A program made the translations under genes and the position numbers. Shown here one piece after another: positions 5,249-52,894 of a stretch of DNA of 64,000 nt (position 1 is the first letter of the stretch; each line of letters opens with the position of its first letter). The DNA is from Trueperaceae bacterium (GTDB taxonomy: Bacteria; Deinococcota; Deinococci; Deinococcales; Trueperaceae). The stretch is taken from NCBI GenBank assembly GCA_965223045.1, contig CBDCVN010000013.1, positions 4,167,840 to 4,231,839 on the forward strand. The letters are read 5' to 3'. The notes beneath the pieces are model-generated. The model searched no databases. It had not been told where the DNA came from and was given only the letters and a program-made list of their open reading frames with translations.

Positions 5249-5432
5249 GGCTATTGAGGAGTTTCTGTCTAGAACATGTTTTTCTCAATTCACACGTTCT
5301 TTTTAGGGCTATTGTTTTTTTAGCTGACAGGGGATGAAAATAATTACCTATACTTGTAGGTATGCCCTAAATAAAGAACAAGGGATTTCAATCCCTTGTT
5401 CACAGAAACATTCAATCTATATAAAAACTAAA

Positions 5433-7484
5433 TCAGTAACATGTTACTTTTGCCTCGACCAATAAACCTGTAATAGTTTCATTATTAGTCACTTCAGCTA
5501 TCAAAGTGTGTGTGCCACTTGGTGAGAAAGTTGCTGAAGTACTTGTCCCAACCTGGAAAGAATTGGCACCATTTGCTGGAAGATCAGATATTACCGTTCC
5601 ATCAAGCTTGAGTTTAGATCCGTTATCAGAAGCATGGCGAGCAACATCAAGAGTGCAAGTGGAAAAACCAGAGGGTATGGAAAAAGTTCTCTGATATATA
5701 TATAGATCAGGAACAAGTACCCAAGTATGCCAGTTTGCTATATCTGGTGGATTTGTTGGGTCATAGGGCATAATCCATTCGGAATGAGGTGAGTGACTAG
5801 CTTTCCAAGTTAAATTGGGAGCATATTCAGTAACAAAAGTTTCTGATGCGACATTAGCATTAGGAGGTGATAGAGTAATTATCCAATCATAGTCAAGGTC
5901 ACCAATATTAAGGGGAGTATTACTATCTATTGATCCAGTACTTATATCCAAACAAAATTCGACTGGATTCTTCGTGCAAGCCTCATCGTTCTGGGGATTG
6001 AAATTGCTAGGAGAGTCTACTGTTGCACAATTCTTAACTATATTTCCTTGCACTTCATTTGTAACATCAACTTCAAGAACTAAAGTTATGATATCACCGG
6101 GGTTAATTGGATAGGGGCCATTGTATTCACATACAACAACAGGGGTATAGGGAGGAGGACAACTCCAACCAGAAGAAGCAGAAACAAAATCAACTCCTGT
6201 AGGAAGAGTATCAGTTACAATAATCGGACCATTGTCTGGATCTGGGCCATTGTTGATAACATCTATAATGTAGTTAGCATGACTGCCTACAGTTAAAGTC
6301 TCTCCCTCTAAACGTTTTCTAATTGATAGGTCGGATCTACTAGGGGTAGAAACAGGATTTTTTATACAGCTTTCATTATTGCTGTCAACAGTATCACCAG
6401 CAGCACTTACTTGTGCACAATTCTTAGCTATATCATCTGCATCTGCCGTAACCTCAACAGTCAAACTCAATGTAACAAAGTTGTTTGGCCCGTTAGGAGG
6501 TATTGGTGGACCTGTGTAAATACATTCAACAACATCAGGGTTACTGCTTTGGAGGGTACAGCTCCAATTAGGGGGAGAGTTATCATCCCAAGAGATGCCT
6601 ACAGGAAGAGTATCTGTGATAATAATTGGACTGTTAGCTGTGCTATTAGCTGCACTAGGGCCACTATTAGTTACTTGTATGTTATAGGTAGATTGGCTGC
6701 CTATAGTTAAAGTATCTCCTTCAAGACTTTTCTCAATAGATAAATCAAACCTTTCTTTCTTTTTGTAGCATACATGTAAACGTGTAAAGTCAACAGATGT
6801 ATCGTCTTGTACTACTACATCAAGCTTTTGGCTGCTTCCTAAAGGTGTAAAGGCAGCTGATGTTTGATTTATTTCTATTGCTGCTACTATTTCACCATTA
6901 CTAGAAAGTGTATCAGTAATCCAAACAGTAGAATTAGTTAGGTCTACAATAGGAGATCCAAGAGTATTATTTGTTCCCACTTCTCCTATGGTTAACCCAT
7001 CATTATTTTGAATTTCTCCAATACCACGAACTCCTGTTATAAAAAATGCTTTAGTAATATTGCTTGGTAAGCCTGAAAAGGTCTCACCGAAGAACTGATT
7101 TACAAACTGTCCATCATATCCTGCAAGTGTTTGTTGCCCTTGGTAATTATTGGTACCAAGAATGACACTATTAAACCACGTATCCAAATTACTATCTGGT
7201 AGAGTAGTAGTAGTGGAAGGATCTACAACAACATCAAACATATCCAAAAATCCTTTTGTAATAACCTTATGTTGCTCTTCCCGACCACATTCAAATTTTG
7301 TCTCCAGCTTCTCAACTGCCAAAAGCAGTTCAGACTGTGGTTTATCATCAATTGGATTTTGACCACAGCTAGCCATCAAACCTAAAGCAAGAACTACCAA
7401 AAACCAAACTAACAATCTATATACTAATGCTCTATTCCACAATTGTGTTGAGCTAACTTCTGAAGTAAAAACTTTCTGATTCAT
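5433..7484 (-). CDS. Lipoprotein with two DUF11-type repeat domains and an unassigned C-terminal domain
   Basis: Lipobox LMASC after a hydrophobic leader. Two repeats carry the ITDTLPxG / VTDTLPTG signature typical of DUF11. Confidence 0.7.
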   Translation of the reverse strand: MNQKVFTSEVSSTQLWNRALVYRLLVWFLVVLALGLMASCGQNPIDDKPQSELLLAVEKLETKFECGREEQHKVITKGFLDMFDVVVDPSTTTTLPDSNLDTWFNSVILGTNNYQGQQTLAGYDGQFVNQFFGETFSGLPSNITKAFFITGVRGIGEIQNNDGLTIGEVGTNNTLGSPIVDLTNSTVWITDTLSSNGEIVAAIEINQTSAAFTPLGSSQKLDVVVQDDTSVDFTRLHVCYKKKERFDLSIEKSLEGDTLTIGSQSTYNIQVTNSGPSAANSTANSPIIITDTLPVGISWDDNSPPNWSCTLQSSNPDVVECIYTGPPIPPNGPNNFVTLSLTVEVTADADDIAKNCAQVSAAGDTVDSNNESCIKNPVSTPSRSDLSIRKRLEGETLTVGSHANYIIDVINNGPDPDNGPIIVTDTLPTGVDFVSASSGWSCPPPYTPVVVCEYNGPYPINPGDIITLVLEVDVTNEVQGNIVKNCATVDSPSNFNPQNDEACTKNPVEFCLDISTGSIDSNTPLNIGDLDYDWIITLSPPNANVASETFVTEYAPNLTWKASHSPHSEWIMPYDPTNPPDIANWHTWVLVPDLYIYQRTFSIPSGFSTCTLDVARHASDNGSKLKLDGTVISDLPANGANSFQVGTSTSATFSPSGTHTLIAEVTNNETITGLLVEAKVTCY

Positions 7485-7698
7485 TTAAATCATCCTTTTT
7501 ATTCTTAAAGTCACACCTTTTTGGTGTGCTAGATAGAAGCTTAAGTCAGATTTTGCAAATGAGCAGGAAAGTTAGAGTAACTTCTTTATAGAGCAAAAGT
7601 GCTTTTCTGGTAAGAGTTTTTTTAGCTAGTTTAGAAATGATACAAAGAGCAAGTCAAAGGCTACAAAGTTTCCTAGCTAGATTGGTAAAAATTATTAG

Positions 7699-8628
7699 CT
7701 ATTCAGGGCTTGTTGTGGGTATTTGATCAAGTAAACTATTTAATCCAATACCGTTAGTGTGTAGCAGGCTATTTGTAAACCAAGCAGGTAAAAGTTGCTC
7801 ATCACAAGTAAAGCGTGAAACAAAATCTCCTTTTGATAGATAAGAAGTTATTTTGTTACTAGGAAAAGCTAAATTATCAAGGTCAGTCCACTTACTAATA
7901 GCTTTGTAGGGATAATCTAAGCCAAATTCCACTAATTTTGCTGTTAACTCAGGTAAAAAAGTTATTTCAAAAATTCGACCGTGTAAATCAATATTTAAAT
8001 CCTCTAAGATGCACACAGGTTGACTAACCCATATTTGCCCAGCTGAAACTGTTGTAAAAGGCCCTAAACCCGTATCTATTTTAGCAGCAGCCTGCACACT
8101 GCCTTCTAATACAACTACTAAAGTCATATCAATTTCAAAATAGTAACTTACTGTATACCAAGTTCCCATTTCGATAATAACAGCATCACCTGTTTCAGTG
8201 ACATGCTCGCGACAGTTTTTATAAGCTACTGTGCCCTCGAGCGCCTGACACTGCAAGTAATTACTTTCTTTCGAACACTTTTCTAAAGTAGCCCTGCTGC
8301 CAAATATGCCCCAAAGTTTGCTACGACGAAAAAGATAAGACTCACAAACTGGCTCTTCTATACCTAAATCAAAGCCAAGTAAATGAACTTCGCCTTTATC
8401 ATCAGTAATTATTTTATAGCTTTCTTGCTCAGGGTTTTCAGGAACCTTAAGTCTAAAAGGTTCATTTTTGTAGATAGAAAGTATACTATTGGATTCAAGT
8501 AATACTTCCCAAACCTCTACAGAAAGTGCTATAGGGTCTGAAAGAAATTCATCTGGTTTGCCATCTTGTGCTAGTGCGTGGTTGATATAAATTAGAACTA
8601 TAAAGACAGTTCTATAAAAGGTTCGCAC
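7699..8628 (-). CDS. Secreted hypothetical protein (309 aa), last gene of the protease-NTPase operon
   Basis: N-terminal signal-peptide-like leader (FIVLIYINHALAQD). Starts 20 nt after the stop of the upstream gene. No recognisable motif. Confidence 0.6.
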   Translation of the reverse strand: MRTFYRTVFIVLIYINHALAQDGKPDEFLSDPIALSVEVWEVLLESNSILSIYKNEPFRLKVPENPEQESYKIITDDKGEVHLLGFDLGIEEPVCESYLFRRSKLWGIFGSRATLEKCSKESNYLQCQALEGTVAYKNCREHVTETGDAVIIEMGTWYTVSYYFEIDMTLVVVLEGSVQAAAKIDTGLGPFTTVSAGQIWVSQPVCILEDLNIDLHGRIFEITFLPELTAKLVEFGLDYPYKAISKWTDLDNLAFPSNKITSYLSKGDFVSRFTCDEQLLPAWFTNSLLHTNGIGLNSLLDQIPTTSPE

Positions 8629-8648
8629 CTGTAACCACCTCCTGCATC

Positions 8649-11327
8649 TTAAAACTGCTTAATATTTATTGATGATCCACCAATAATAATAAGCACTACT
8701 ACACTAACATCTATTAGAGGTAAGTAAGTTAAATATGGAAAACTACCTATTGCATACATTTGCTCACTCCAAGCAAATATAAGCCCTTCAGAGAAGTTGA
8801 AAATATTAGGTAAGGACCATTGTACAATGGCAGCTAGTAGAACAGCTAGTGAAGCATGCAGAAATTTTCTATGAAGCAATTTATGCCCTATAGAATTACT
8901 AATACCGATTCCTAATAGAAAACTGCCTAAAATAGCAGGTAATGGATTTCTAAGGAAGTTGGTAGGGCTTATGGTTAGTGACATTATCAGTGTTATAAGG
9001 GTAAAGCAGCCTGCTCCCACTGCTAATTTAAAAATGGTTTTGAGGTGCACTTTTTTTAAGTTAAGGAAAATATTAACGATTGTACTAAAGGCTATACTAG
9101 CTCCTAGCAGCATTCCCCAAAAGAAATAATCTAGGGCGGCACGAGAGTCTGAACCTATCAGACTAAGAGTTAGGTATCTAAAAAGGGTATAGAGAATTCC
9201 CACAGATATACTGCTGCTTATAAGCGAGCGAATGAATTCATCTTTCTGAATTTGTTTTAGGCTGTTTTCAACTAACTTTTCTTCTTGTTTTGTCCACTTA
9301 CGCATTCCAAGTCTGCCATCTTTAACAAGTGTTAAATCTGACTTGTCTAAAGTAGGGAAGGTTGATTTTCTTTGATATGTTAGTACACCCTCTTGCTTTA
9401 CTAAGCGGCTCTCTAAAACCCGCCTAGCCCTTTGCCCTAATTTATTAGAATTTGCAAAACGATCACGTATCAGTGGGGCAAGAATGTCATGAGTAAGGCG
9501 GATATACTTATCCTTATTGATATCTTCTTTACCTAGGTCAGCTAGCAGATAGTGCTCCTTTAACTTATCTATTAGTCCGCTTAAGTTATGGTAGTGCCCA
9601 TACCTTCTTTCGACCTTTTTAGCTAAGCGTTGTTTTGCTGTACCTACAAAGGTAGTATGGTACTCTAGGACATCTAGCACTAATCCTAAATCAACAACAT
9701 CTTTTTGCCATTTCCCAATGGTTTCAAGCCGCTCATCTAAGAAGTCTCCAAGCAAAATACCTTGTGTCCTTAACCTTTCATAAAGGGCAAGATTGAAAAT
9801 AGGCTTTGACCCGCTTATTTCCGTAGCCTTATTCCACATTTTGGTCAAAATAATTTGTAGAATTGGGGCAATGCTCGAGCCAACATCTCTTAGCAAATCT
9901 CGAGCAATAATTTCAGCCACATTATCTTCAACTATTAAGTTATAGTGATGTTTTAGTCTTTCGTTACGAGTAATTCCTTCGACAATCTCTATAACCCCTT
10001 CATAGTCAAGGGGTTCTAAGAAAAACTTCTTTACACTGGGTAATTTACTCTCACTTAACTCTTTCTCGATTTCAGCAAGCCACTCTTTACGGAAGCCAAG
10101 AATTAGTCGACCAAGAGGGCGATCTTCTAGCTGAGCGAACACTTGTTCTAAAGCTTGTATGAGTTCACTCATTTCCTGTTTCCAGCTTTGTGCTACTACT
10201 TCTTGTGGAAAACCATTATCTTTTTGGGGATTAGTATAAACTTCCTCAAGCTGATCAAGAACTACTATTAGGGGTTTCTCTACTTCTCTTTCTATACGTT
10301 GCCAACTTGCTTTCAAATTAATTTCTGTTGTTGACTTAACTTCTTTAAAAGCTTGGAGTAGACTGCCTAGGGCACCCCACTCTTGATTTCGCCGCACATA
10401 AAGCACTTTGTATGATGAAAGCCCCTTTACATCTCCCATTTTTAGTCTTGGCAATAAACCAGCTGCTAAAAAAGAAGATTTCCCCACACCTGCTTGACCA
10501 TAAAGTAGAGTGATGGCGGTGCTATCAGGGTTAGTAAGATGTTGATAAAACTCAATGATTGACTTGTTGCGACCAAAGAAAATTTCACTGTGAGCTTCAC
10601 TAAAATGATTGAGGTCACAAAAAGGTTGTTTTGGCAAATCACCTTTAGGCAAGTTAGGTAAATTAGTATCAGGTTCTTTAAGTGAAAATTCTTTAGGTAT
10701 TCTTACCTTATCCCATACCTTGTTTAAAATGTAAGTTGGTATTAGGAAGCCTGTTTTACCTATAGTCGTAGCAGCACTCATAATTCCTACAATGCATCCC
10801 AATTCACTATGCCACACACCACCACCACTAAATCCTTGCCTAATGCCTCTGCCTTGTTGATTATCGTCTACTTGTATCCAACCACTAGCAGCTTCATCAC
10901 GAAATTCTCCAGAAGCCCAAATACCTTCATTGTAGGGTTGAGGAAACCCAAAAATACGAAACTCTTTACCCCAAAACTCAGAAGTAGCATGAAGTACTGT
11001 AGGTGAAGTATCTTCAGGTTTTGAGTTTAGTAATTGTAAACCTGCTACATCTCCACTTTGATTATTTGGTTTTTCATAGAAGATAACTTTTGCCTTGTAA
11101 TTGATGTTTTCTTTACTAAAAGGGAAAGTAAGGCTAATAGCTTCTTGTAAAGGATCTCCGAGTTTATTTCCTTCAGCAGCTAAACACTCTTTAACAACAT
11201 GTGCACAAGTAAGAATGTACTGATCAGAAATCAGTACTCCAGCACCCTTGGGTTTGTTTTTACCCTTGCTACCTCCCCATAGACAAACAGCAGATTGCTT
11301 TAATTTTTGTGGCTCAGTTTGTTTCAA
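8649..11327 (-). CDS. Trypsin-like serine protease / STAND-type P-loop NTPase / polytopic membrane domain fusion (892 aa)
   Basis: Protease triad motifs LTCAHVV (His), GDVAGL (Asp) and GFSGGGVW (Ser). Then FFGR, Walker A GQAGVGKSS, Walker B VVLDQLEE and LTHDILAPLIRDRF. About six hydrophobic helices occupy the last ~190 aa. Confidence 0.8.
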   Translation of the reverse strand: MKQTEPQKLKQSAVCLWGGSKGKNKPKGAGVLISDQYILTCAHVVKECLAAEGNKLGDPLQEAISLTFPFSKENINYKAKVIFYEKPNNQSGDVAGLQLLNSKPEDTSPTVLHATSEFWGKEFRIFGFPQPYNEGIWASGEFRDEAASGWIQVDDNQQGRGIRQGFSGGGVWHSELGCIVGIMSAATTIGKTGFLIPTYILNKVWDKVRIPKEFSLKEPDTNLPNLPKGDLPKQPFCDLNHFSEAHSEIFFGRNKSIIEFYQHLTNPDSTAITLLYGQAGVGKSSFLAAGLLPRLKMGDVKGLSSYKVLYVRRNQEWGALGSLLQAFKEVKSTTEINLKASWQRIEREVEKPLIVVLDQLEEVYTNPQKDNGFPQEVVAQSWKQEMSELIQALEQVFAQLEDRPLGRLILGFRKEWLAEIEKELSESKLPSVKKFFLEPLDYEGVIEIVEGITRNERLKHHYNLIVEDNVAEIIARDLLRDVGSSIAPILQIILTKMWNKATEISGSKPIFNLALYERLRTQGILLGDFLDERLETIGKWQKDVVDLGLVLDVLEYHTTFVGTAKQRLAKKVERRYGHYHNLSGLIDKLKEHYLLADLGKEDINKDKYIRLTHDILAPLIRDRFANSNKLGQRARRVLESRLVKQEGVLTYQRKSTFPTLDKSDLTLVKDGRLGMRKWTKQEEKLVENSLKQIQKDEFIRSLISSSISVGILYTLFRYLTLSLIGSDSRAALDYFFWGMLLGASIAFSTIVNIFLNLKKVHLKTIFKLAVGAGCFTLITLIMSLTISPTNFLRNPLPAILGSFLLGIGISNSIGHKLLHRKFLHASLAVLLAAIVQWSLPNIFNFSEGLIFAWSEQMYAIGSFPYLTYLPLIDVSVVVLIIIGGSSINIKQF

Positions 11328-11425
11328 TTAGCTGGTCCTTTTTTGGAGTTGTGATTACTTTATTTATTCCTACACCTTGATCTGCATATTTCATTAACCA
11401 AGCAGCTTGTTAATCAGCAAAAGAT

Positions 11426-12406
11426 TTAACTTTTGCGAGGAATAAATACTATAGCAATAAGCCCAAACCAAAACTTTTCCCAATTGATCTCTTCAACTAA
11501 AGAAAGTTCTTGCCAATTTTTAGGTTGCTCGAGAGTAATATGTAAAGTATTAAATGAAGAGGTTATCTCAAGGTGATCACCTAAAAAGGATAGTGGCTCC
11601 TCTTTAAGATCAGTAATTAAGCGTAAAATCCAAGCAGTATCTTGTAAACTAGCAAGCAAATCCGCTGCTGTTTCTTGGGGAGAGAGTTCTAAAGAGAACT
11701 CTAAAAACTCATAATTTGGTTCAATATTTATGAGCTGGGTTTCAAAGTCTACAAAGCGGGCCAAACGTGGCTCAGTAAAAATCCTTACTGTAGGATTTTG
11801 CTGTTCTTCTTCAGCTCTATAAATATAGGTTAAACCACTTGCTGGTGGCATAAATCCTACTTCTTGTGAATTGTCTAAACTAGCATGAATTATTGAATCA
11901 TAAAGCTGATTTTGGGCTTGGCTATCCTCTACTAGCATTTCACCTAGTAAGTCTTGCACTTTTGGATCAGACACCTGAGCTGCACCCAATAAAGCATTCT
12001 CTAAGGCGTAGTTTTCGCGATACATCTTGTAGCGATTAGCAAATATCTTGCTGGCCTCTTCATCACCTACTAGCTGAGCTACTTTATCAGCAAAGCAATA
12101 AAAAAAACCTCTAAAGGGGTCAACTCTTAACTTGAGATTTTGAGTTGCCTTAGCTACTTCCAAAGCCCGCCTATTATCGCCTTTTGCAAACATTAAAAGT
12201 GAATCGGTGGCTTGCCTTAACAAGAAAAGGTTAGTTTTGCTAGCAGAATTAGCTGCCTCTGAGCTTTTTGGCAATGTTTTATATGTTGAGGAATTTTGGA
12301 AGCTGGTCAAAATTAGCTTATCTTCCTTTGTGAGTACTTCTGAGAGAACTACTTTTTGAAGCAAGGGCTGTAAACGTTTAAAATTACTTATGAAATGTGC
12401 CATCAC
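11426..12406 (-). CDS. Hypothetical protein (326 aa) with C-terminal membrane anchor
   Basis: 4-nt ATGA overlap with the upstream gene. Single hydrophobic segment FWFGLIAIVFIP at the extreme C-terminus. No known motif. Confidence 0.6.
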   Translation of the reverse strand: MMAHFISNFKRLQPLLQKVVLSEVLTKEDKLILTSFQNSSTYKTLPKSSEAANSASKTNLFLLRQATDSLLMFAKGDNRRALEVAKATQNLKLRVDPFRGFFYCFADKVAQLVGDEEASKIFANRYKMYRENYALENALLGAAQVSDPKVQDLLGEMLVEDSQAQNQLYDSIIHASLDNSQEVGFMPPASGLTYIYRAEEEQQNPTVRIFTEPRLARFVDFETQLINIEPNYEFLEFSLELSPQETAADLLASLQDTAWILRLITDLKEEPLSFLGDHLEITSSFNTLHITLEQPKNWQELSLVEEINWEKFWFGLIAIVFIPRKS

Positions 12407-13500
12407 TTTCCTTTTGCTTTAATCCGAAAAATAACTGCCTCTAAAACGGCAGCCTCAATAGTTTCAATATTATCTAAGTGTTCTTGCACAGATTCATGCC
12501 AAGGTTTGCCTCCAAAGAGTTCAGGAAAATCATCACAGTGCTCGAGCCACCCGTCAATAACTCTTATTGCTTGAGGAAAAGCAGCACTTAGGCTCAGGCA
12601 TACTAACTCAAGTGGACGGCGGCTATCTTCTCTACTATCAACACCAAAAAGTACTCCAAAGTTTATTTTATCTTGTTCAGAGAGGTAGCAACTTGCTGCC
12701 TGCCATTGCCTTGCCATAAGCTTTATATCTTTTCTTTTAAAGGGAGTAGAATCTGTAGCAAGAATGTAGAACACTGCAAAGCTATAATCTTTTGGTACTA
12801 AATTATATTTATCTTCCAAATAATCAGCAATAATGTTTAGTAGAGAAGTGCCAGAAAGAGGTAAGCAACCAAAAACGTAAAGGAGTGGGAGCAAATCATT
12901 TTTAGGCCATAGTTTAATTACCTCATACCAAGATTCACTAAAAAGTTGGCGCACCAACTTAAGCAAGCTCCCACCAATAGCGTGCTTACCTTTATTATCT
13001 ACTTGTGCAAGGTTTGGTAACCAAGCAAATATATCTGCTACACTCATTGAATCTATATCGAGTTGGTCAAGGTATTCATTACCCAAATAGAGTTTTAAAG
13101 GACTTTCTTGCGTCAAATAATTTTTAATGGTTATGTCAGTGAGGGTTGCTATTTCATTTAAGGAAATGTTTTTCAAGCAGGCTATGAAGTTTTGCCACGG
13201 TTGCTCGAGCCCCTTTTGAATAAGGCGTTTTATCTCTTTTTCACTCTTGCCAGACAGCAAATAGCCATTTAAATAATCGCTCACCACATCAAAAAGCAAT
13301 GCTAGCCATTGGTGTGGTGCTTTACTTGGACAATATTTAGAAGTCTCTCTAACAAAAGCAAGTTCTAAAAAGTGTAAAATAAAAAAGTGGCGACCTCTTG
13401 CTAAGTCACCACGTCCTTTGAGGGCCAAATTATAAAAGTGATCCACAAGCCACTGAAATTTATAACTACTATTATTTACCATGTAAGTTACCTCCAGCAC
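12403..13500 (-). CDS. Hypothetical cytosolic protein (365 aa), first gene of the operon
   Basis: Long ORF with coding-like composition, translationally coupled to the next gene. No known motif. Confidence 0.6.
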   Translation of the reverse strand: MLEVTYMVNNSSYKFQWLVDHFYNLALKGRGDLARGRHFFILHFLELAFVRETSKYCPSKAPHQWLALLFDVVSDYLNGYLLSGKSEKEIKRLIQKGLEQPWQNFIACLKNISLNEIATLTDITIKNYLTQESPLKLYLGNEYLDQLDIDSMSVADIFAWLPNLAQVDNKGKHAIGGSLLKLVRQLFSESWYEVIKLWPKNDLLPLLYVFGCLPLSGTSLLNIIADYLEDKYNLVPKDYSFAVFYILATDSTPFKRKDIKLMARQWQAASCYLSEQDKINFGVLFGVDSREDSRRPLELVCLSLSAAFPQAIRVIDGWLEHCDDFPELFGGKPWHESVQEHLDNIETIEAAVLEAVIFRIKAKGK

Positions 13501-18371: not shown

Positions 18372-19850
18372 ATGAGAAAGTTTTTGTTACTTTTGCTCTT
18401 TTTATTCTTATTTGTTAAGGCACAAGATTTACAGGAATTTACCACTGAATTTCAACTAGATAATGGTTTAAGAGTTATTATGGTTAAGCAAGGCTTTGCT
18501 CCAGTTATTAGCTTTAACTTGATGTTTGATGTAGGTGGTATGGATGAGCCTGATGGTTTAGGTGGTTTGGCTCACATGGTTGAGCACATGGCTTTTAAAG
18601 GCACTCAGAGTATAGGCAGCAATGATTTAGAGGCTGAACTAGCAGCCCTTGAAAAAATTGAAGAACTAATTACTAGATTAGATCAAGTTGAAGAAGAGGA
18701 TGCAACTGAAGAAGAGCTAGAAGAGCTTAGGGAGCAAATTGCTGAAAGTCGGGAATATGCTAAAAGCTTAGCTTCTCCTAATGCCTTTGACACACTCTTC
18801 GATAGTAATGGTGCAGTAGGTTTAAATGCTACTACAGGATATGATCGTACATCTTTTGTGGTTTCTTTACCTGCTAATCGTTTGGAGTTTTATGCTCGAG
18901 TTTATGCTGATGTTTTGCTCGAGCCAGTCTTCCGTGGCTTTTATGAAGAGAGTGATGTAGTCCACGAAGAGCGCCGCCAACGTGAAGCAGATGACCCTCG
19001 TGGATTTTTATTTGAGCGCTTTTTAGGCACGGCTTTTGAGGTGCACCCCTACGGCAGACCACTTATTGGCTCTGATGAAGAAATAGATGGTTACCGCGCT
19101 AGTGAGGCTGAAGATTTTTTTGAACTTTATTACCATCCTAATCGCGCTGTACTAGTATTAGTGGGTGATGTTGAACCTGAACGGGACATTGAAATCATAG
19201 ATAATTATTTTGGAGCCGTGCCTAGAGGCCCAGAAGACCACATTAGTATTCCTAAAGAGCCAAAACAAATAGAAGAGCGTCGCTTAACACTTAATTATGA
19301 TGCTGAACCACAAATGGTAATAGGTTTTCACAAGCCTACTTATCCTGCTAGGGACGCTTATATATTAGATGTTATAGATGCTATTCTAACATCAGGACGT
19401 ACTTCTAGGCTTTATAAGAGTCTTGTTACAGAAGAGCAATTAGCTTTAAGCATAGTAACTGGTTCAGGCTTCCCAGCTATACGTGATCCCAATCAGTTTG
19501 TGATATATGCTTTGCCGCTTTTTCCCAACACAAATGAAGATCTTGAAGCTGCTATTTATGAGGAGCTCGAGCAACTAAAGACAGAACCTGTAAGCGAACG
19601 TGAGTTTATTAAGGTAAAAAATCAAGTGCGGGCTGGTTTTATACGTGGATTAGGATCGAGCAGTGGCCTTGCTTCCCAGTTGGCCTTTTATGAACTCTTT
19701 TTAGGTGGATGGGAAAATATTGTTAGTTATGCTGATATTATAGAAGGCATAACAACTGAAGAGATTATGGCTACTGCGAATCGTTATTTTGTGCCAGAGA
19801 ACCGTACTGTAGGGTACCTATTACCTTTAGAGGAAGTAGCTGAGGAATGA
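18372..19850 (+). CDS. M16 (pitrilysin/insulinase) family zinc peptidase, secreted
   Basis: HMVEHMAF (HxxEH) zinc motif, downstream VVHEERR glutamate, signal peptide. Confidence 0.9.
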   Translation: MRKFLLLLLFLFLFVKAQDLQEFTTEFQLDNGLRVIMVKQGFAPVISFNLMFDVGGMDEPDGLGGLAHMVEHMAFKGTQSIGSNDLEAELAALEKIEELITRLDQVEEEDATEEELEELREQIAESREYAKSLASPNAFDTLFDSNGAVGLNATTGYDRTSFVVSLPANRLEFYARVYADVLLEPVFRGFYEESDVVHEERRQREADDPRGFLFERFLGTAFEVHPYGRPLIGSDEEIDGYRASEAEDFFELYYHPNRAVLVLVGDVEPERDIEIIDNYFGAVPRGPEDHISIPKEPKQIEERRLTLNYDAEPQMVIGFHKPTYPARDAYILDVIDAILTSGRTSRLYKSLVTEEQLALSIVTGSGFPAIRDPNQFVIYALPLFPNTNEDLEAAIYEELEQLKTEPVSEREFIKVKNQVRAGFIRGLGSSSGLASQLAFYELFLGGWENIVSYADIIEGITTEEIMATANRYFVPENRTVGYLLPLEEVAEE

Positions 19851-21376
19851 ATAGACTAAAGGTAAAGGTTGTCTTATCTACTCAAAATATTGTTATCAAA
19901 AGGTTGTGCTTTATCTTGCTCACAACCTTTTTGTTTGCCACGGCTCAAAATTTACATGAGATTACCACAAAATTTGAGCTTGATAATGGCCTAAGGGTTA
20001 TCATGGTTAAGCAAGGCTTTGCTCCGGTGATTAGCTTTAACTTAATGTTTGATGTGGGTGGCATGGATGAGCCTGAAGGTTTAGGTGGTTTAGCTCATAT
20101 GGTTGAGCATATGGCTTTTCAAGGCACCCAGACTATAGGTAGCAATGACTTAGAGGCTGAACTTGCAGCCCTTAGAGAAGTTGAACTCTTTACAGCTATG
20201 CTAGCACAAACTGAAAAGAGTGGTGCTAGCAATGAAGAAGTTAAAGAACTTAGGGAAAGACTGATGCAAAGTCGTGAGTATGCTAAGGATTTGGGTTCTC
20301 CCAACGATTTTTCTACACTTTTTGATAGTAATGGGGCAGTAGACCTAAATGCCTTTACAGGGTATGACTACACTTCTTATGTGGTTTCTTTACCTGCTAA
20401 TCGACTAGAGCTTTATGCACGGGTTTATGCTGATGTTTTGCTCGAGCCAATCTTTCGCAACTTTTATGAAGAACGTGATGTGGTACGCGAGGAGCGACGT
20501 CAAAGTGATGAAGATGATCCTTGGGGCTTTTTGTCTGAAAGGTTTTTAGCAACTGCTTTTGAAGTTCATCCTTATGGTAGGCCACTTATTGGTTCTCCTG
20601 AAGAGATTAAAAATTATCGTAGCACTGAAGCAGAAGCCTTTTTTAAACTTTACTATCATCCTAACCGTGCTGTTTTAGTACTAGTTGGTGATGTTGAGCC
20701 TAATAGTGATATTGAAATAATAAAACGCTATTTTGGATTGATTCCTCGTGGCCCAGAAATCCGTGCTAAAATTCCAAAGGAGCCTGAACAGTTAGAAGAG
20801 CGGCGCATAACAGTTAATTACGATGCCAAGCCACAAATGGTAATAGGTTTTCACAAGCCTACTTACCCAGTCAGAGATGATGCTGTATTGGATGTTATAG
20901 ATGCCCTGCTAACTTATGGACGTACTTCTAGGTTGTACAAACGTCTTATTACTGAAGAGCAATTAGCCTTAGAGGTAGGGTCAACTGAGGTTTTTCCAGC
21001 CTTGCGTGATCCTAATCTGTTTATAATATATGCTACTCCACGTTCCCCAAACACAAATGAGGCTTTAGAAGCTGTTATTTATGAGGAATTAGAGAAATTA
21101 AAAGGGGAATTTGTAACTGAGAAGGAGCTTCATAAAGTAAAAAACCAAGTTAGGGCTGACTTTATATATAATTTGAGCTCGAGCGATGATCTTGCTTCTC
21201 AAATAGCTTTTTCCGAACTTTTCTTAGATGGTTGGGAAACTATTATAAATTACAATGCTGTTATTGAAGAAATAACAGCTGAAGAGATTATGACTATTGC
21301 AAATAATTATTTTGTAGCAGAAAATCGTACTGTAGGATATTTATTGCCTGTAGAAGAAATTGAGGAAACTCAATAA
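19847..21376 (+). CDS. M16 family zinc peptidase, tandem paralogue
   Basis: Same HMVEHMAF motif. Roughly three quarters identical to the upstream gene by eye. 4-nt ATGA overlap with it. Confidence 0.9.
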   Translation: MNRLKVKVVLSTQNIVIKRLCFILLTTFLFATAQNLHEITTKFELDNGLRVIMVKQGFAPVISFNLMFDVGGMDEPEGLGGLAHMVEHMAFQGTQTIGSNDLEAELAALREVELFTAMLAQTEKSGASNEEVKELRERLMQSREYAKDLGSPNDFSTLFDSNGAVDLNAFTGYDYTSYVVSLPANRLELYARVYADVLLEPIFRNFYEERDVVREERRQSDEDDPWGFLSERFLATAFEVHPYGRPLIGSPEEIKNYRSTEAEAFFKLYYHPNRAVLVLVGDVEPNSDIEIIKRYFGLIPRGPEIRAKIPKEPEQLEERRITVNYDAKPQMVIGFHKPTYPVRDDAVLDVIDALLTYGRTSRLYKRLITEEQLALEVGSTEVFPALRDPNLFIIYATPRSPNTNEALEAVIYEELEKLKGEFVTEKELHKVKNQVRADFIYNLSSSDDLASQIAFSELFLDGWETIINYNAVIEEITAEEIMTIANNYFVAENRTVGYLLPVEEIEETQ

Positions 21377-27727: not shown

Positions 27728-28728
27728 GAGTTGTTCGGAAATAGCCAAATCAGCTAAAATAGTAGCTAGTATGGTAGTTTTCAAAACCAGAAGTGACAGA
27801 CAAGTAAGAGCCTTGACAGGTTTGCCTGAAGAAAAGATAAATGAGTTAGAGACAGTGTTTGAAGAGGTATATGAGGAGCAAAGTCAAAAAGACTATGAAG
27901 AACAACAAGCTAAAGGGGAAAGAGAACGATCTAGGGGAGGAGGAAGAAAAAGTAAACTTCCTTCTACTAAACACAAACTCGAATTTATTCTCTACTACCT
28001 GAAAAGTTATCCTACAATGGATGAATTAGCAGAGAAGTTTGATATGTCTCGTTCCAGTGCACACTATTGGGTACATAAGCTGCTGCCAATTCTCTCAGCA
28101 GCCTTGGCAAAATTAGGTATGTTGCCTAAGAGAGAGTTCAATACACCTGAGGAGTTAAAAGAAGCGCTTGAAGAAGCAAGAAAAATACTGATTGATGCTA
28201 CAGAAAGGAAACATAGACGCCCTAGTGAAGAAGAAAAGCAGGAGGAGCTATATAGTGGAAAAAAGAAGGGTCACACGGTAAAAAACACAATAATAGCAAC
28301 AGGAAGAAAGGTAATAATCTATGTAGGAAGGACATTTGCTGGGCGGAGACATGACTATGGGATGTTTAAGGAGGAGTTTCCACCTAAACAAGGCTGGCTG
28401 AAAGAGGAGGGAAAAAGAGCAAATCTAGACTCAGGTTATCAAGGTATAAACAAGGATTATGGGATAGGAGCAGCGATACCAAAGAAAAAGCCAAGGAAGA
28501 GTAAAAAGAATCCTAATCCAGAGCTAACAGAAGCAGAGAAGGAGAGGAATAAAAGGCTGGGCAAAGCAAGGATATATGTAGAACATGCCATAGGAGGTAT
28601 GAAACGCTTTAATATACTAGTGCATGCCTTTCGGAATCGCAAGACAGGTTTTGTAGATAGCGTTATAGCTGTCTGTGGGGGGCTTTGGAATTTTTTGATT
28701 GTTTAAACTATTTATTTCCGAACAACTC
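27728..28728 (+). mobile_element. IS with a DDE_Tnp_4 (Harbinger/IS5-like) transposase, nested in the IS1634-like element
   Basis: Terminal inverted repeats GAGTTGTTCGGAAATA at 27728 and its complement ending at 28728. Confidence 0.7.
27771..28706 (+). CDS. DDE_Tnp_4-type transposase
   Basis: N-terminal HTH region, then YSGKKKGHTVKN...AGRRHD...DSGYQG, which looks like a typical DDE_Tnp_4 layout. Confidence 0.75.
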   Translation: MVVFKTRSDRQVRALTGLPEEKINELETVFEEVYEEQSQKDYEEQQAKGERERSRGGGRKSKLPSTKHKLEFILYYLKSYPTMDELAEKFDMSRSSAHYWVHKLLPILSAALAKLGMLPKREFNTPEELKEALEEARKILIDATERKHRRPSEEEKQEELYSGKKKGHTVKNTIIATGRKVIIYVGRTFAGRRHDYGMFKEEFPPKQGWLKEEGKRANLDSGYQGINKDYGIGAAIPKKKPRKSKKNPNPELTEAEKERNKRLGKARIYVEHAIGGMKRFNILVHAFRNRKTGFVDSVIAVCGGLWNFLIV

Positions 28729-30110
28729 TCTTTCTTTACCATCTCCTTTATCTTCTCTAACTCTTCTTTTGTTGCTTTTAGCAAATCTTGTCGCTTTTTC
28801 CCTTTCCACTCCGCTACTTCTCTATTACAGCACCCTATCAATCTCTCTTTTTCATATTCTTGATCTTTAAACTCTAAATATTCTTCTTTCTTCAATTCTT
28901 CTATATTCAAATTCCCACTTTCTATCAGCTTTTTTATACTTGCTGTCTTCAATGCTGCTATCCAACCTACTCCCTCTTCTTTTTTTAACTCTTCTATCTG
29001 TTTTTTCCCTATTACTCCTCTGTCTCCTACGATCACTATTTCTTTTATTCCAAATTCCTCTTTTAGCTCTTTTATCATTGGTTTTAGTATCTTTGACTCT
29101 GTGTAATTGCCCTCGTACACCCTAGTTACTATTGGACATCCCCTTTTGTCCGTCAGCAATGTGTAATTTACTTGCTTTTTCCCTCTCTTTTTATCTTTAT
29201 TCTGTCCCCATTTTGCTAATGGACATTCCTCTCCTTCAAAATAACTTGAACTCATGTCATACATTAATACTTTCTCCCCTTTGACATGCCTATTTGTTAA
29301 TTTCTTTTCTATATATCCTTGCCTTGCTTCCAACCATTCAATTACCTTACACACTTCTTCTTCCCTTGCTTTCCTTACTTCTAGCATTTCTGGTAAAGTT
29401 GTTGTTTCCCACCATCTTATTGTTGCTAATTTACTATTTGGTGCTAGTATCCTTGCTGCTATCAATGCTTCTACTAAGTTTCTTTCTTGTGTGGCACGAC
29501 TTGCTATTAACCTCTTAAACTCTAGTTTCTCCATAGCTTTTATTACTGCTTTTACATGTCCATGATGCTTAGATTCAATCACTTCAAAAGCTTGATCTAT
29601 AGGTACAAACTGCTTACCCTTTAAACAGCTTCGGATCATTTCTATAATTTCATCACCTAGTGGACTTAGGTTTGCTAGGGTTTCTTTTTTTACCTTGCCA
29701 TCTTTACGATAAGAACGTCTCAGTAAGTAAGATTTATAAGTTTTTCCTTTATACTGGCGAGTGCTTGTAGCTACATGCACCCCAGAAGACCTATTCCTCA
29801 TAGCTAAAGTACAGGATAGCAGATTTTGACAATTAATTCAACTTTTAGTGTCTACAGTATTGCACCCTAAATTACCCATTTGCATTGTGTAGAACAAGAG
29901 TTTGAACTAAAAAAATAACCTTGTTTAAAACATACTTAAGCAACTCAAGGGTGGCAAAGTATCCGGTCAAAGCGACGTTTATGCCCAATTGAATTTACAC
30001 CCTCGTACAAAGCAATTGCAAGGTGCAAAAAACCATGATAAATTATGCTCCCTCTTCATACTCAAACATTAGTTCTAGCACGCAACCTCTGAAATGCTAC
30101 CAATTTTATA

Positions 30111-32274: not shown

Positions 32275-32444
32275 GGTGTGTAGAATATCGAAAGTCGGTG
32301 TGTGAAATATCGAAGATTGGTGTGTAGAATATCGAAAGTCGGTGTGTGAAATATCGAAGATTGGTGTGTAGAATATCGAAAGCACTTGCATTGGTGTGTG
32401 AAATATCGATAGTGAGGTGTATGGTGTGTGAAATATCGAAAGTA
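32275..32444 (+). repeat. Seven 22-bp iterons (oriV)
   Basis: GGTGTGT(A/G)(G/A)AATATCGAA(A/G)... units start at 32275, 32297, 32319, 32341, 32363, 32393 and 32423. Two alternating subtypes give a 44-bp periodicity. Confidence 0.85.
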
Positions 32445-33485
32445 GACCGTTCCCCTCTCCTGCCAGAACGTCATCCACAACAGGATTTATTTATCTGCGA
32501 TATTTTCGATGCCGTTCCCAAGGGGGACATAGCATCTATGGAACATCCTGTTTTTAGCCTCTCCACGAAGCCAGATGTAAGGCCTCGTCGTTATGAGAGA
32601 AATGGAAAAGTGCTTGAAATTACTCCTTCTGTAAAAGGTCTTGCAACAGTTTATGACCGTGATGTTTTGATATATTGCATTTCTCAGGTTATTGCTGCTT
32701 TGAATGAAGGAAGGAGTGTAGCAAAAACCTTGCGCTTTAAGGCTCATGATTTGTTGATCTCTACAAATAGGCAAACTAATGGGCAAGCATACGAGGCTTT
32801 AAAAGCTGCTTTTGAACGCTTACGTGGGACAACCATTTCAACAAATATCATGACAGGTGGTACGGAACAACTGGATGTATTTGGCCTGATAGATCGAGCG
32901 AAGATCATACGAAAAACCCGTGATGGACGGATGCTAGATGTAGAAATTACTCTTTCGGATTGGGTGTTTAATGCAATTCGCTCTAATGAAGTACTGGCGT
33001 TGAATAAGCGTTACTTTCAACTTCGGAAGCCGTTAGAACGTCGCTTGTATGAATTAGCACGGAAGCATTGCGGACGCCAAAGGGAATGGCGAATTAGCTT
33101 AGAAACCTTGCAAGAGAAAACGGGCTCAAGCTCAACACCAAAAGAATTCAAGCGGCTGATTAATAAAATTATCAAGGATGACTCGCAATACAATCACATG
33201 CCTGATTACTTCGTTAGTCTTGAAAGCGAAATTGTAATTTTTAAACCCAAGCCTGAGTTTTCAGAGGCGTATCGTGGTGTGAAAAAGGGGGAATCGAGTT
33301 ATGGGTTTTTGAAGTCCGAGACATACGAGAAAGCAAAAGAGTATGCACCAAGTTGGGATATTTATTTTCTTGAACAGGAATGGCGAGAATGGATGGTTGA
33401 GCCTCCTCAATATCCAGATGCTGCTTTCCTTGGTTTTTGTCGTAAGTACTATGAGAGGCATGGGAAGGCAAAGGGAAGTATTTAG
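32421..33485 (+). CDS. repA: Plasmid replication initiator protein RepA (Replication initiator protein A family)
   Basis: HPQQDLFICDIFDAVPKGDIASMEHPVFSLS motif. The start is uncertain: the ORF is open from 32346, but those codons are iteron sequence, so ATG 32421 is used here. Confidence 0.75.
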   Translation: MVCEISKVDRSPLLPERHPQQDLFICDIFDAVPKGDIASMEHPVFSLSTKPDVRPRRYERNGKVLEITPSVKGLATVYDRDVLIYCISQVIAALNEGRSVAKTLRFKAHDLLISTNRQTNGQAYEALKAAFERLRGTTISTNIMTGGTEQLDVFGLIDRAKIIRKTRDGRMLDVEITLSDWVFNAIRSNEVLALNKRYFQLRKPLERRLYELARKHCGRQREWRISLETLQEKTGSSSTPKEFKRLINKIIKDDSQYNHMPDYFVSLESEIVIFKPKPEFSEAYRGVKKGESSYGFLKSETYEKAKEYAPSWDIYFLEQEWREWMVEPPQYPDAAFLGFCRKYYERHGKAKGSI

Positions 33486-41180: not shown

Positions 41181-44100
41181 TCATGCGGCTACTTTCAGGG
41201 GAAGAATTCCGATAGAATCTTTGAGTTTTTCGTCAGAGAAATCGTACTCGCCAAGCATATTCACATGTGCCCATGACATGGGCGAGTGTGCTGTGATTAT
41301 GCGGTGTAAATTTTCTTTGGTTTCGACGTCTGTCGCTTTTTCGATCTGGCGAGTGAGATAGAGGTAATTCCAGCAGATGATGCTGTTTTTGATGAGTCGA
41401 TTGCAGGCTTCAGCAATTTCCTGTTCCTCTTTTTCAGTCTGTGTAAATTCGCGGGGGTTTCCGACGGCGACGGCACGGGTGAATTTATTAGCTAACTCGA
41501 CTTTGTTGAGTTGTTTCTCAATGGCTTGCCGTAATTCCACATCGTCTATATAGCGAAGTATAAACAGTGACTTGATGATCTGCCCAAAGGCTTTGAGCGT
41601 CTGATACAGTGCATGCTGGCGAGAATAGGAATTAAGCCGCCGAAAAATATCCGAAGCGGTGTTTTCCTTGAGTTTGATGGTAGCAACTAAACGCAGTAGA
41701 TCATCCCAGTTTTCGTGGATCAGCGTGTCATTGACGTAATTGGCAGGGATGATCTTCCATCCCTCGCGGTTACTTCGCTTATGACCGTGAAACAGATAGA
41801 GCCTTTGCTTGCCAATCCCTTTGATACGTGGGGCAAAAGAAAATCCCAACAGGTGGATAAGGCCAAACACCGCCTCAGTATAGCCGTGTGTGTCGGTGGA
41901 ATGGATATCACTTTTGATGACATCATTGTGCATGAGACCGTCGATAACATAGGCGCTTTCACGGTCAGCGGCGCTGATCATCAGCGAATGCCACAGAAAA
42001 TGCCGTTCATCGGCGAAGGTGTAGGCGCTGACACCTTGTCCTTGCCCGAAATACTTGAATGACCGACTGGCATGCAGGGAGTCGCCACGCACCTCGAATT
42101 TCTGTCCGTCGCTAGCGGTATGAAGTGTATCCTTCTCCCGGCGATAGAGATTGGGAAGATCCATTTTATCCATGGCTTTGAGCACCGTATCATGGGCAGT
42201 ACGGATATTGTCGAGCGAGAAACGCCAGTTGACGGTGTGTTCCAGCTCACTTTCGGTAACACGCGAAGAAATTCGCGCCATTTTTCGTACACCAATGCCA
42301 CAACCCAGTCCCATGATCCCAGCCAGTAATGCGGGATGTGATGTGGATGGTCGGATATGGGTCTGTCGCCAATGTTCGAAAGCATCCAGCATGCCGCAGT
42401 GATTGTTGATAGTTTCCAGCACCTGTGCCAACGGCACATCGTGCCGTTCGGGAAACAAGGCTCCAAGCGGATCGACATCAAAAGCGTCGAGTGCAGGTGT
42501 AGCGACATGAAAGGTGCTATCAGAGCGGAATTTCAGATGTGGGTTGTTGGTCACACGATCGTTTGTCGTTTGATACTGTGCATAAAGAGCCTCGTCCAAT
42601 TTTGTTAGAATGGGTACGGGAGCGGCAAAACCGTCAAGACCGGCTCGTTCCAGCAAACAGGATTTCTCTCGTTTCCACCTTTCAGGAGCAATCAGATAGG
42701 CATCCATTGGGCGGTATTTATAGGATTGGACAAGGTTCAGATCGCCGGACTTGATTGCACCAGTGACGTGCTGGAACAGGAACACCTTGTAAAGTGAGGG
42801 ACGAAATGTACCATCTTCACGTGTCAATATTTCTCTCTCATCAGCATCAAGGAAATCCATCGGTGCTCGGTCACTAACACCTCCATTGCTGGCCTTGAAA
42901 TGCTCAATAGCTGCAATCAGTGAGGTAGCACGATCATTCGGTTTGAAAGAAAGTGCTCGCAAAATTGGGCGGAGACGATTTTGTAACCGCAGGGAATGTG
43001 CTTCCAGTACGTTATACCAGCTTCCATCTTGCGCCGTATCGTGCAGACTGACTTTCAATCGTTCAAACGCACCAGTTTGACCGCAATTCAGCAATGCTCG
43101 GATCTCTGTGATTTTCTGCGTATCGGACAGGCTATCAGCATCGGTCAGGGTGCGGATTTCCCGAATCAAGCCGAACACTTCAGTGTCGAGTGTCTCAACT
43201 ACGGATGTAATCCTTTCCTGTTGTCCCTTGCGGTTTTCCAGCAATCTTTCCTTGTGTTCACGCGCAGCGGTTGTTTGAAAGGAGGCCATGACATTAAGCC
43301 AAAGATCGACCAGATTATCTTGCATGCGGAAAAATTGATGTGCAACAAAGGCGGTAGCATGGATATAGCGATCGTTATCTTCACGCCGATGTATCTGAAA
43401 CACTTCAGATTTCAGCACACTGCCAGCATAATAGCGGATACCGGCAGTACCAAGATCAAGAACTGACAGAATCTTTTCAAGTTGGCTATACAGCACTGCC
43501 AGTGTCTCGAAATCTGCAATGCTTTCCTTGATCCGTGTCGGTTTTGTCGATTGCGATAGTTTTTTAAGCAACGTCAGACAGTAGCGATTCTGGTCGTCTG
43601 TCGTGCTGAACAGGTCATCCAGCAACCCCCGCGTTTCGTCGGTTAGATGGGTATCCATCAGCGCTACCAGCTCGGATTTTCGGGTATACAGACCCCCGCG
43701 GATTAGTTCGAGTATGACACCTGCTCGTGGAACCTGTACCCGACGCTGCATGAGGAAATCCACGCAGCGGTCAAACATCAGCCGTGGCTTGAGGTGCATG
43801 CGTGCCATGGTAGCAATTTCAATAGACAAGATTTTTTTCGCCGTCTCATTAAAAGGCGCAAAGCCATAGAACTCCAGAATCAGTTGCTGATGACGAGCAC
43901 GCGTCTGCTTGGCATATGCATCTGATGAAAAATCGGAACTTTGTAGCTCCAGAATTCGTGCAACTACTTCTCTATCGCGTTCATGAAAATCCTGTGGCTG
44001 ATAAAACCGCTTGGTTGCTTTGAAATATCCACACATCAGCAAAAATCCAATTTTCCCACTGGGTGTGCGCAGCGTAGCAGCGGTATCCATCAAACCTTTG

Positions 44101-52853: not shown

Positions 52854-52876
52854 AAAAACATTATAACTCTTTGCTT

Positions 52877-52894
52877 TAGAGGGTGTTTGGAAAT
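52877..52894 (+). repeat. Solo copy of the IS5-family terminal repeat (TA plus GAGGGTGTTTGGAAAT)
   Basis: 18/18 identical to the left end of the IS at 30109-30126. No similarity continues beyond it. Confidence 0.7.

Follow-up and report, generated by a model that had tools for sequence, protein, structure and literature searches.

We analysed a 64,000-nucleotide (nt) stretch of DNA from a Trueperaceae bacterium (hereafter the window), in which a minus-strand gene encodes an 892-amino-acid (aa) protein composed of a trypsin-like protease, a STAND-type nucleoside triphosphatase (NTPase) and a C-terminal six-transmembrane (6-TM) domain. In all six loci in which this 6-TM domain was found, the gene directly downstream on the same strand encodes a secreted protein or protein domain of one family, of 309 aa in the window. 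There is, in our judgement, about an even chance that the 892-aa and 309-aa proteins form a two-gene, inner-membrane-spanning module, in which the 6-TM domain and its secreted co-receptor, as sensor, drive a cytoplasmic protease gated by nucleoside triphosphate (NTP). We place the module among the nSTAND1 conflict systems of the protease-STAND kind, which are known already, as a variant of these. The two genes and their domains are the following.

8649-11327, minus strand: 892-aa gene with a TTG start, encoding trypsin-like protease, nSTAND1 NTPase and 6-TM domain
10683-11327, minus strand: S1/chymotrypsin-fold serine protease domain, residues 1-215 (PF13365, PF00089 and triad motifs)
9258-10625, minus strand: nSTAND1 NTPase module, residues ~235-690 (PF20703 at 96 bits; Walker motifs)
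8652-9230, minus strand: 6-TM domain (residues 700-892), in which the outer loop 846-866 is conserved (GL[IV]FAW), from hydropathy and loop charges
7699-8628, minus strand: 309-aa gene with a GTG start, encoding the secreted partner with a Sec-type signal peptide

The protease-STAND protein and its secreted partner

Pfam Trypsin_2 (PF13365) matched residues 28-182 of the 892-aa protein over the full profile (1-144) with 38.7 bits against a cut-off of 27.6 (E = 2e-9), and the same domain matched PF00089 at 3.6e-6. The nSTAND1 family (PF20703) matched residues 235-518, its score standing against a cut-off of 27.1 bits. The triad motifs are in canonical order, LTCAHVV (H43), GDVAGL (D93) and GFSGGGVW (S167). 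Walker A is GQAGVGKSS at residues 277-285 (K283), Walker B is VVLDQLEE at 355-362 (D358), and the motif LGQRARRVL at residue 631 ends the module. The first-pass annotation of this DNA had proposed a fusion of trypsin-like protease, STAND NTPase and polytopic membrane domain. The two Pfam families and six hydrophobic helices bear this out, and the motifs that it quoted are all present, those of the triad and of Walker A and B being conserved in two full-length relatives. The motifs around H43, D93, S167, K283 and D358 are invariant across these three orthologues; triad and Walker motifs are intact by sequence, and both Walker motifs are also kept in the more distant relative P0128.

The protease domain, which is predicted to lie in the cytoplasm, found its best PADLOC matches among proteases of defence systems, LmuA at 3.3e-10 followed by RT-Protease and Avs1b. 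The 892-aa protein is not itself a member of Avs1b; it scored 17.8 bits with the NCBIfam equivalog, for which the cut-off is 1500, and through the protease domain only. A search of PDB sequences with the protease domain alone was empty or non-significant.

When 5.8 billion proteins were searched with the 892-aa protein, 644 matches were obtained, and the relatives described here are the best 120 of these 644. Among them P0002 (78% identity) and P0003 (76%) are the full-length relatives. The remaining matches listed are nSTAND1 proteins, which mostly carry an N-terminal CHAT domain and C-termini of the WD40, TPR or FGE-sulfatase type. More than 100 CHAT-nSTAND1 proteins are 39-47% identical to the query over its central 50-64%. 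Its sequence puts the 892-aa protein in the nSTAND1 clade described by Kaur et al., and the module, at first described as of a type not recognised, is recognisable as one of this clade (PMC8195603, PMC7159879; cf. PMC12642450). nSTAND1 proteins with caspase or trypsin heads have been defined already (PMC8195603), and a preprint (Evans et al. 2025, PMC12642450) names "transmembrane STAND ATPases" as sensors in protease-effector modules.

The relatives also bear on how such proteins end. Among P0004-P0120, 108 relatives carry a GQRARRxL motif, and a hydrophobic helix lies 40-100 residues past the GQRARR in 91 of the 108. Lysine plus arginine (K+R) is higher before this helix than after it in 83 of the 91, with means of 5.9 and 2.6. 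Because the helix is present in 91 of 108 motif-bearing proteins, we read membrane anchoring at this point as the norm of the clade, predicted for about 85% of the closest nSTAND1 relatives. The earlier statement that STAND fusions normally end in soluble repeat sensors is thus wrong for this clade. The orientation of the relatives' helix fits N-in/C-out, and their WD40, TPR or FGE domains are predicted to be extracytoplasmic. If it is true that these sensors face the periplasm, a large class of predicted conflict systems needs to be read again. The first helix of the 892-aa protein (residues ~700-722) matches the position of the relatives' single helix, and in helix distance and in positive charge on the N-terminal side the protein resembles the membrane-anchored nSTAND1 subgroup. 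What is unusual in it is the trypsin head together with a polytopic domain that has only short loops. Paralogues are present in the same genome (P0012 and P0030). In a quick neighbour-joining tree the trypsin copies clustered with P0128 and with the same-genome paralogue P0012, and P0129 fell outside; the tree is unsupported and gives a hint of lineage-specific shuffling.

The 6-TM domain contains six hydrophobic segments within residues 700-887, in agreement with the about six helices initially read in the last ~190 aa. Loops 2-3 and 4-5, which we propose to be cytoplasmic, hold three K+R each, as compared to 1, 1 and 0 in the outer loops. This charge distribution fits an N-in/C-in topology, in which the 21 residues 846-866 would form an outer loop. 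An exhaustive HMMER census with residues 640-892 against 1.84 billion cluster representatives found, outside the query's own cluster, only P0128 (38% identity, 4.6e-23) and P0129 (7e-4). P0128 is an 876-aa protein (locus L006) in which CHAT and nSTAND1 are followed by the same 6-TM domain. P0129 (603 aa, locus L007) is the nSTAND1-multiTM piece of a frameshifted CHAT-nSTAND1 gene on a low-coverage contig of 62% GC. A further case was reached by tblastn of plasmids with the 309-aa protein, in Deinococcus aetherius pDAETH-2 (locus L009). There DAETH_RS21020 consists of a C14 caspase, a linker of ~290 residues and six helices. These helices score 35 bits with the hidden Markov model (HMM) of the 6-TM domain, and BLASTP aligns them to P0129 with 37% identity over 149 residues (5e-9). 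In DAETH_RS21020 Pfam finds only the caspase domain, and no P-loop was seen on reading, with no motif scan run; from its sequence the protein appears to be without NTPase. Three cytoplasmic heads, trypsin-nSTAND1, CHAT-nSTAND1 and C14 caspase, thus occur on this domain, which is rare yet recurs with swapped heads. A scan of the JGI metagenomes with the 6-TM domain gave no match. Rhomboid-like catalytic motifs were considered for the domain and rejected, no candidate motif being conserved in P0128.

The 309-aa protein has a Sec-type signal peptide at residues 1-21, as had been noted at first reading, with cleavage between ALA and QD, and a beta-rich core. It passes the synteny test that was proposed with that reading: a homologue lies directly downstream of the 6-TM gene, on the same strand, in six of six loci (the window, L001, L002, L006, L007 and L009), which range from 35 to 69% GC and represent about four independent levels of divergence. 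Identity to the 309-aa protein is 61% in L001, 80% in L002 and 41.5% in L006 (E = 5e-59). In L007 the partner is the first ~300 residues of a 788-aa protein, ~25% identical to its nearest family member (E = 9e-9), and this protein continues past the partner domain into Big_7/CARDB/Big_5. The D. aetherius partner (DAETH_RS21015) is 28% identical, with E = 1e-5 against all plasmids. Family alignments share the signal peptide and a core of the form GTWYxVxY...VVLEG...GxxW...P. C118, C127 and C139 are invariant in six of six members, and C95 is kept in the four nearest members, whereas the two distant members have it in a shifted position. Given its cleavable signal peptide and conserved cysteines, the 309-aa protein should be periplasmic.

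Between the window and L001 the partner is 61% identical and the protease gene 78%; between the window and L002 the figures are 80% and 76%. Among the close partner copies, that of L001 has diverged most. Such mixed divergence figures give a hint of a fast-evolving sensor. The L001 homologue (336 aa, L001 12694-13680) also carries an insertion of ~40 residues, which resembles an internal duplication of the GQIWVSQP...DLxIDLYGQIF segment. The 309-aa family had no match in the JGI metagenome scan.

An AlphaFold2 (AF2) model of the 309-aa protein from a five-sequence alignment gave its core, residues 140-235, a predicted local distance difference test (pLDDT) of 62-83. When this model was compared to the PDB by Foldseek, the top four matches were FecR-type anti-sigma periplasmic domains (E = 1.9e-5 to 4e-4, probability 1.0), among them PupR (6ovk) at 1.9e-5 and BDI_1681 (4m0n/4m0h), and the next match had an E of 0.13. 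We tentatively take the fold as FecR-like, which is a lead from a model and not a finding.

Proposed mechanism and competing explanations

In the mechanism that we propose, the sensor input would consist of the 6-TM domain together with the 309-aa protein, which is secreted and probably FecR-like. This input would be placed where most nSTAND1 relatives have a single TM helix and a WD40, TPR or FGE domain. An event outside the cytoplasm or in the envelope, such as ligand binding or the loss, displacement or cleavage of the partner, would alter the contact of the partner with the TM domain, and this would free the NTPase to bind NTP and oligomerise. Oligomerisation would gather the cytoplasmic protease domains and activate them by proximity. 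The active protease would then cut cellular targets or a latent effector, and the outcome would be a proteolytic signal or else, in the manner of conflict systems or abortive infection, growth arrest or death. The logic of protease-STAND activation and of protease-licensed effectors is taken from PMC12642450, PMC7159879 and PMC8195603. The NLR-like, NTP-gated proteolytic switch of the first-pass annotation is therefore retained as the best reading. Its envelope-spanning module is retained in part: it is plausible that the 892-aa protein and its secreted 309-aa partner reach together across the inner membrane into the periplasm, and the two further genes upstream, for a 365-aa and a 326-aa protein, are not a constant part of it.

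Several points weigh against this reading. The contact between partner and TM domain is deduced only from gene adjacency. Six loci are known and three of these are close relatives, which leaves about four independent observations of co-occurrence. The 309-aa protein was poorly modelled (mean pLDDT 45.6), and the TM-scores of its model to the FecR-type structures are only 0.22-0.35. Pfam FecR (PF04773) matched none of five family members at E <= 10, hhalign of the partner with E. coli FecR was negative (probability 0.1), and the family HMM was without match in PDB sequences. The 365/326-aa pair accompanies all three trypsin-headed copies and may be linked to the protease in function. On both sides of the locus lie housekeeping genes (PPK2, permease, PRAI, GT2 glycosyltransferase, MnmA, M16 peptidases and deformylase), so that the idea of a defence island did not hold for the window. 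Because of these neighbours we can only infer a defence role, and at the window locus it has no contextual support.

The first-pass annotation had taken four linked minus-strand genes as one operon. The upstream pair and the end of the 309-aa gene add three features.

12403-13500, minus strand: 365-aa gene, the first of the separable pair, an open reading frame (ORF) without family assignment
11426-12406, minus strand: 326-aa gene, the second of the separable pair
7702-7722, minus strand: C-terminal heptapeptide IPTTSPE of the 309-aa protein, identical to the C-terminus of proteins in L001, L002 and L003

The ORF coordinates and the spacing of the four genes were as had been reported, with gaps of 98 nt between the 326-aa and 892-aa genes, 20 nt between the 892-aa and 309-aa genes (with AGGAGG 8 nt ahead of the GTG start) and 214 nt from the 309-aa gene to a DUF11 lipoprotein gene. 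The reported ATGA overlap of the first two genes needs a trivial correction; the junction reads aaGTGATGgca, which gives an overlap of GTGA with a GTG start or TGATG with an ATG start. The description of all three partners as unassignable was upheld. The 365-, 326- and 309-aa proteins went unmatched when compared to Pfam, NCBIfam, PADLOC, PHROGs and PDB sequences, and searches of PDB sequences with profiles of the three families were empty or non-significant. For the 365-aa protein no signal peptide is predicted. The C-tail anchor proposed for the 326-aa protein stands only as far as there is a short hydrophobic tail: this is conserved, yet it has just ~13 residues (FWFGLIAIVFIP), is below the standard hydropathy threshold and was modelled by AF2 as a strand with pLDDT about 56-60. 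The whole 326-aa model has a mean pLDDT of 59.5, with an N-terminal helical domain at 72-93 and a weak C-terminal beta domain; it found no significant fold match, Foldseek giving nothing below E 6e-3.

It is possible, though in our view unlikely, that the four genes form one integrated system, in which the 365-aa and 326-aa proteins are obligatory partners of the trypsin protease in the cytoplasm or membrane, for example latent effectors that cleavage licenses, like Pepco, EACC1 or Trypco, and the 309-aa protein is the periplasmic arm. The same gene order and tight spacing are seen in the window and in L001, with different flanking genes (365-aa homologue 81% identical, 326-aa homologue 79%). 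A 326-aa remnant upstream of the L002 copy places the pair with all three trypsin heads and with no caspase-headed one, and effector genes are usually found directly upstream of protease-STAND genes (PMC12642450, PMC7159879). However, the shared order is weak evidence, as the three trypsin-headed loci are closely related (76-86% identity). The pair also occurs in L003 (365-aa homologue 64-67% identical, 326-aa homologue 54%) and as a paralogue in L005 (46% and 47%), where lipoprotein genes come after it; neither locus has the protease gene, and tblastn with the trypsin domain finds nothing there. Conversely, L006, L007 and L009 have the 6-TM gene and its partner without the pair. In L002 the pair has been destroyed by insertion sequence (IS) elements: a Transposase_mut IS splits the 326-aa homologue into 6636-6938 and 8338-8955 (region 6046-8955), an IS1595-type gene stands in place of the 365-aa homologue, and the protease gene and 309-aa homologue are intact. 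Because it is always translationally coupled and is separable from the 6-TM genes, the pair is a module of its own and not a constant part of the system, and the four genes do not make one conserved unit. It may have been recruited in this lineage as a substrate or regulator of the protease. A DUF433/DUF5615 pair lies directly upstream of the L002 protease gene. A scan of the genome collection with the 365-aa family found only the metagenome-assembled genome (MAG) that carries L001 and L005.

The IPTTSPE tail was also weighed in favour of one integrated system, as the 309-aa protein family carries it only where the pair adjoins. The heptapeptide ends four secreted proteins (elsewhere at L001 13657-13677, L002 13559-13579 and L003 6181-6201 on the minus strand), of which the L003 one (231 aa) is otherwise unrelated to the others. 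Each of the four adjoins a 365/326-type gene pair. Because third codon positions differ, we read these sequences as showing selection on the peptide, which may serve in this lineage as a tag for sorting, processing or recognition. A conserved DNA element was considered and rejected, since there is variation at the third codon positions and no conservation of the downstream DNA.

A housekeeping role in envelope signalling or quality control is improbable in our estimate. Here the FecR-like periplasmic protein would report the state of the envelope or surface, perhaps of the adjacent DUF11 lipoprotein, to a membrane protease that processes a regulator, in analogy to the regulated proteolysis of FecR/anti-sigma systems. 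The housekeeping neighbours with no defence genes nearby, and the fold hint toward FecR-type signalling domains, are consistent with such a role. So are the DUF11/CARDB lipoprotein genes downstream in the window and L002, the absence of a strong terminator ahead of the DUF11 gene, and the fusion of the L007 partner to Big_7/CARDB/Big_5. However, no sigma factor, anti-sigma domain or DNA-binding domain is found at the locus. The best profile matches of the protease are the defence proteases named above, and the nSTAND1 clade has been described in conflict-system contexts only (PMC8195603). The rare and patchy distribution, the paralogues, the IS-decayed copy and the head swaps are typical of accessory conflict genes, and genes of the caspase family abound at L007 and L009.

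We give little credence to the 6-TM domain being the effector, that is, a latent pore or membrane disruptor freed or activated by the protease, with the 309-aa protein as inhibitor, chaperone or unrelated neighbour: a pore-type role was raised by Kaur et al. for multi-TM fusions, protease-licensed membrane effectors are established for EACC1 and Pepco (PMC12642450), and the D. aetherius version, apparently without NTPase, links a caspase to the TM domain, but the C-terminal position is the sensor position in STAND proteins, the first helix stands where the anchoring helix precedes WD40, TPR or FGE in the 91 relatives, a constant TM domain and partner with variable heads fits a shared input better than a shared output, and a pore would not obviously need a co-conserved periplasmic beta-rich protein.

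Returning to the two-gene module with the 6-TM domain as input, a broader version of it is conceivable, which we advance with some doubt. The 6-TM domain and the secreted FecR-like protein may be a portable outside-in receptor dyad for NLR-like and caspase proteases, sensing phage adsorption, envelope breach or a kin/non-kin signal before it reaches the cytoplasm, and most WD40, TPR or FGE nSTAND1 proteins may be true transmembrane receptors too. As far as we are aware, those bacterial STAND/NLR-like immune sensors that have been characterised (Avs, bNACHT) recognise phage proteins within the cell. The occurrence of the dyad on trypsin-STAND, CHAT-STAND and plain caspase heads would make it a modular input cassette and, if this is true, a tractable case of extracytoplasmic sensing coupled to a cytoplasmic protease. 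D. aetherius ST0316 is a cultured carrier of a version of the dyad, which makes the idea genetically testable. If the defence reading is wrong, the locus would still represent a new two-component envelope-signalling architecture of narrow distribution.

Neighbouring genes and related loci

Downstream of the 309-aa gene the same strand carries two further features.

5433-7484, minus strand: DUF11/CARDB-type repeat lipoprotein gene (Pfam DUF11 at 3.8e-22)
5376-5401, minus strand: strongest terminator-like hairpin, with an 11-base-pair stem, downstream of the DUF11 gene

The gap that separates the 309-aa gene from the DUF11 gene has no hairpin comparable to this one, and the lipoprotein gene is possibly co-transcribed. 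Its N-terminal 378 aa are 81% identical to the product of the gene downstream of the L002 copy (L002 15026-16750), and it is absent from L001 and L006. The link of the lipoprotein to the system is weak. The fused partner of L007 (12102-14468) offers a weak "Rosetta stone" hint of a tie to surface Ig-like proteins.

At the loci of the relatives there are IS elements, toxin-antitoxin genes or further genes of the caspase family. In L009 (NZ_AP026562.1 303731-310712, D. aetherius ST0316) DAETH_RS21020 and DAETH_RS21015 are accompanied by a C14 caspase-DUF7379 gene, DAETH_RS21010, and a C1 peptidase and an I42 protease inhibitor adjoin them. A C14-DUF7379 gene is also found near the L007 copy. In L005, a 768-aa ORF at 18858-21164 reads by eye as a P-loop and TPR-like protein. 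No related sequence was found in viral contigs for the 309-, 365- or 326-aa families, which gives no sign of phage origin. The MAG with L001, L002 and L005 is labelled Trueperaceae (Deinococcota). These loci have ~38% GC, which is odd for the label, and given the Deinococcus match the phylum is plausible.

Elsewhere in the window, 27771-48284 is rich in mobile elements and is probably integrated plasmid or transposon DNA. It contains DDE transposases at 27771-28706, 28617-29801 and 46845-48284, a plasmid-type replication initiator protein A at 32346-33485 and a Tn3-family transposase at 41181-44198, the last in a stretch where GC is raised to 0.43-0.49 as compared to about 0.38. The window contains neither rRNA nor tRNA genes. 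A plus-strand gene at 454-2484 encodes a 676-aa protein whose N-terminal AAA_16 match (32.2 bits) is just under the Pfam cut-off of 32.6; this protein may be a STAND-like regulator of the MalT/LuxR type. A 1265-aa protein on the minus strand (49104-52901) has MscS-type domains at its C-terminus only (1051-1159), after a very long N-terminal extension.

Comparison with known systems

The protease-bearing Avs/AVAST STAND proteins (PMC12642450) resemble the 892-aa protein in having a trypsin-like protease at the N-terminus and, fused to it, a STAND NTPase. Both are expected to follow a logic in which ligand-triggered oligomerisation activates proteolysis, and the 892-aa protease domain gives weak profile matches to Avs1b and LmuA. 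In contrast to these systems, none of the four characterised effector families (MBL and alpha/beta-hydrolase as well as Pepco and EACC1) was detected near the window genes. The adjacent genes gave no Pfam, NCBIfam or PADLOC match at E <= 0.1 to EACC1, Pepco, Trypco1/2, MBL or alpha/beta-hydrolase, with the presence of a model for every family in the libraries not verified. Sensing by the 892-aa module is also predicted to be extracytoplasmic and not directed toward cytoplasmic phage proteins.

The FecR/PupR regulators (PDB 6ovk, 4m0n) are the only significant fold matches of the 309-aa model. Like the proposed partner they are periplasmic, with a relay to a proteolysis-dependent output. Unlike them, the 309-aa protein is without sequence-level similarity to FecR and is secreted as a free protein, where they form the C-terminal part of a single-pass anti-sigma factor, and no sigma factor or TonB-dependent transducer is present at the window locus.

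Caspase proteins with C-terminal TM segments and extracellular domains (CHASE2, PBP), or with multi-TM regions known from EACC1/EACC2 contexts (Kaur 2020/2021), are a third point of comparison. The D. aetherius and L007 relatives are likewise of the caspase family, and the idea of a membrane-proximal, protease-based conflict system is common to both. The present 6-TM domain with its obligatory secreted partner is not described in PMC7159879 or PMC8195603, and FecR is mentioned in neither.

The closest systems are the CHAT-nSTAND1-TM-WD40/TPR/FGE proteins, including the "membrane-associated two-gene" EACC1 systems (PMC7159879, PMC8195603). They share the NTPase module (PF20703, 39-47% identity), the linker before it (LPxxDLPxxPF...FFGR), the helix distance and the order of effector, NTPase and input. 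The 892-aa protein differs from them in its trypsin-fold head and in the six short-loop helices that replace one helix and a repeat domain. The window locus has a co-conserved separate secreted protein, and no small TM gene like that of the EACC1 systems is detectable upstream. What the locus adds to these known systems is the rare polytopic C-terminal domain, a co-conserved partner that is secreted and possibly FecR-like, and a dyad of the two that is portable between heads.

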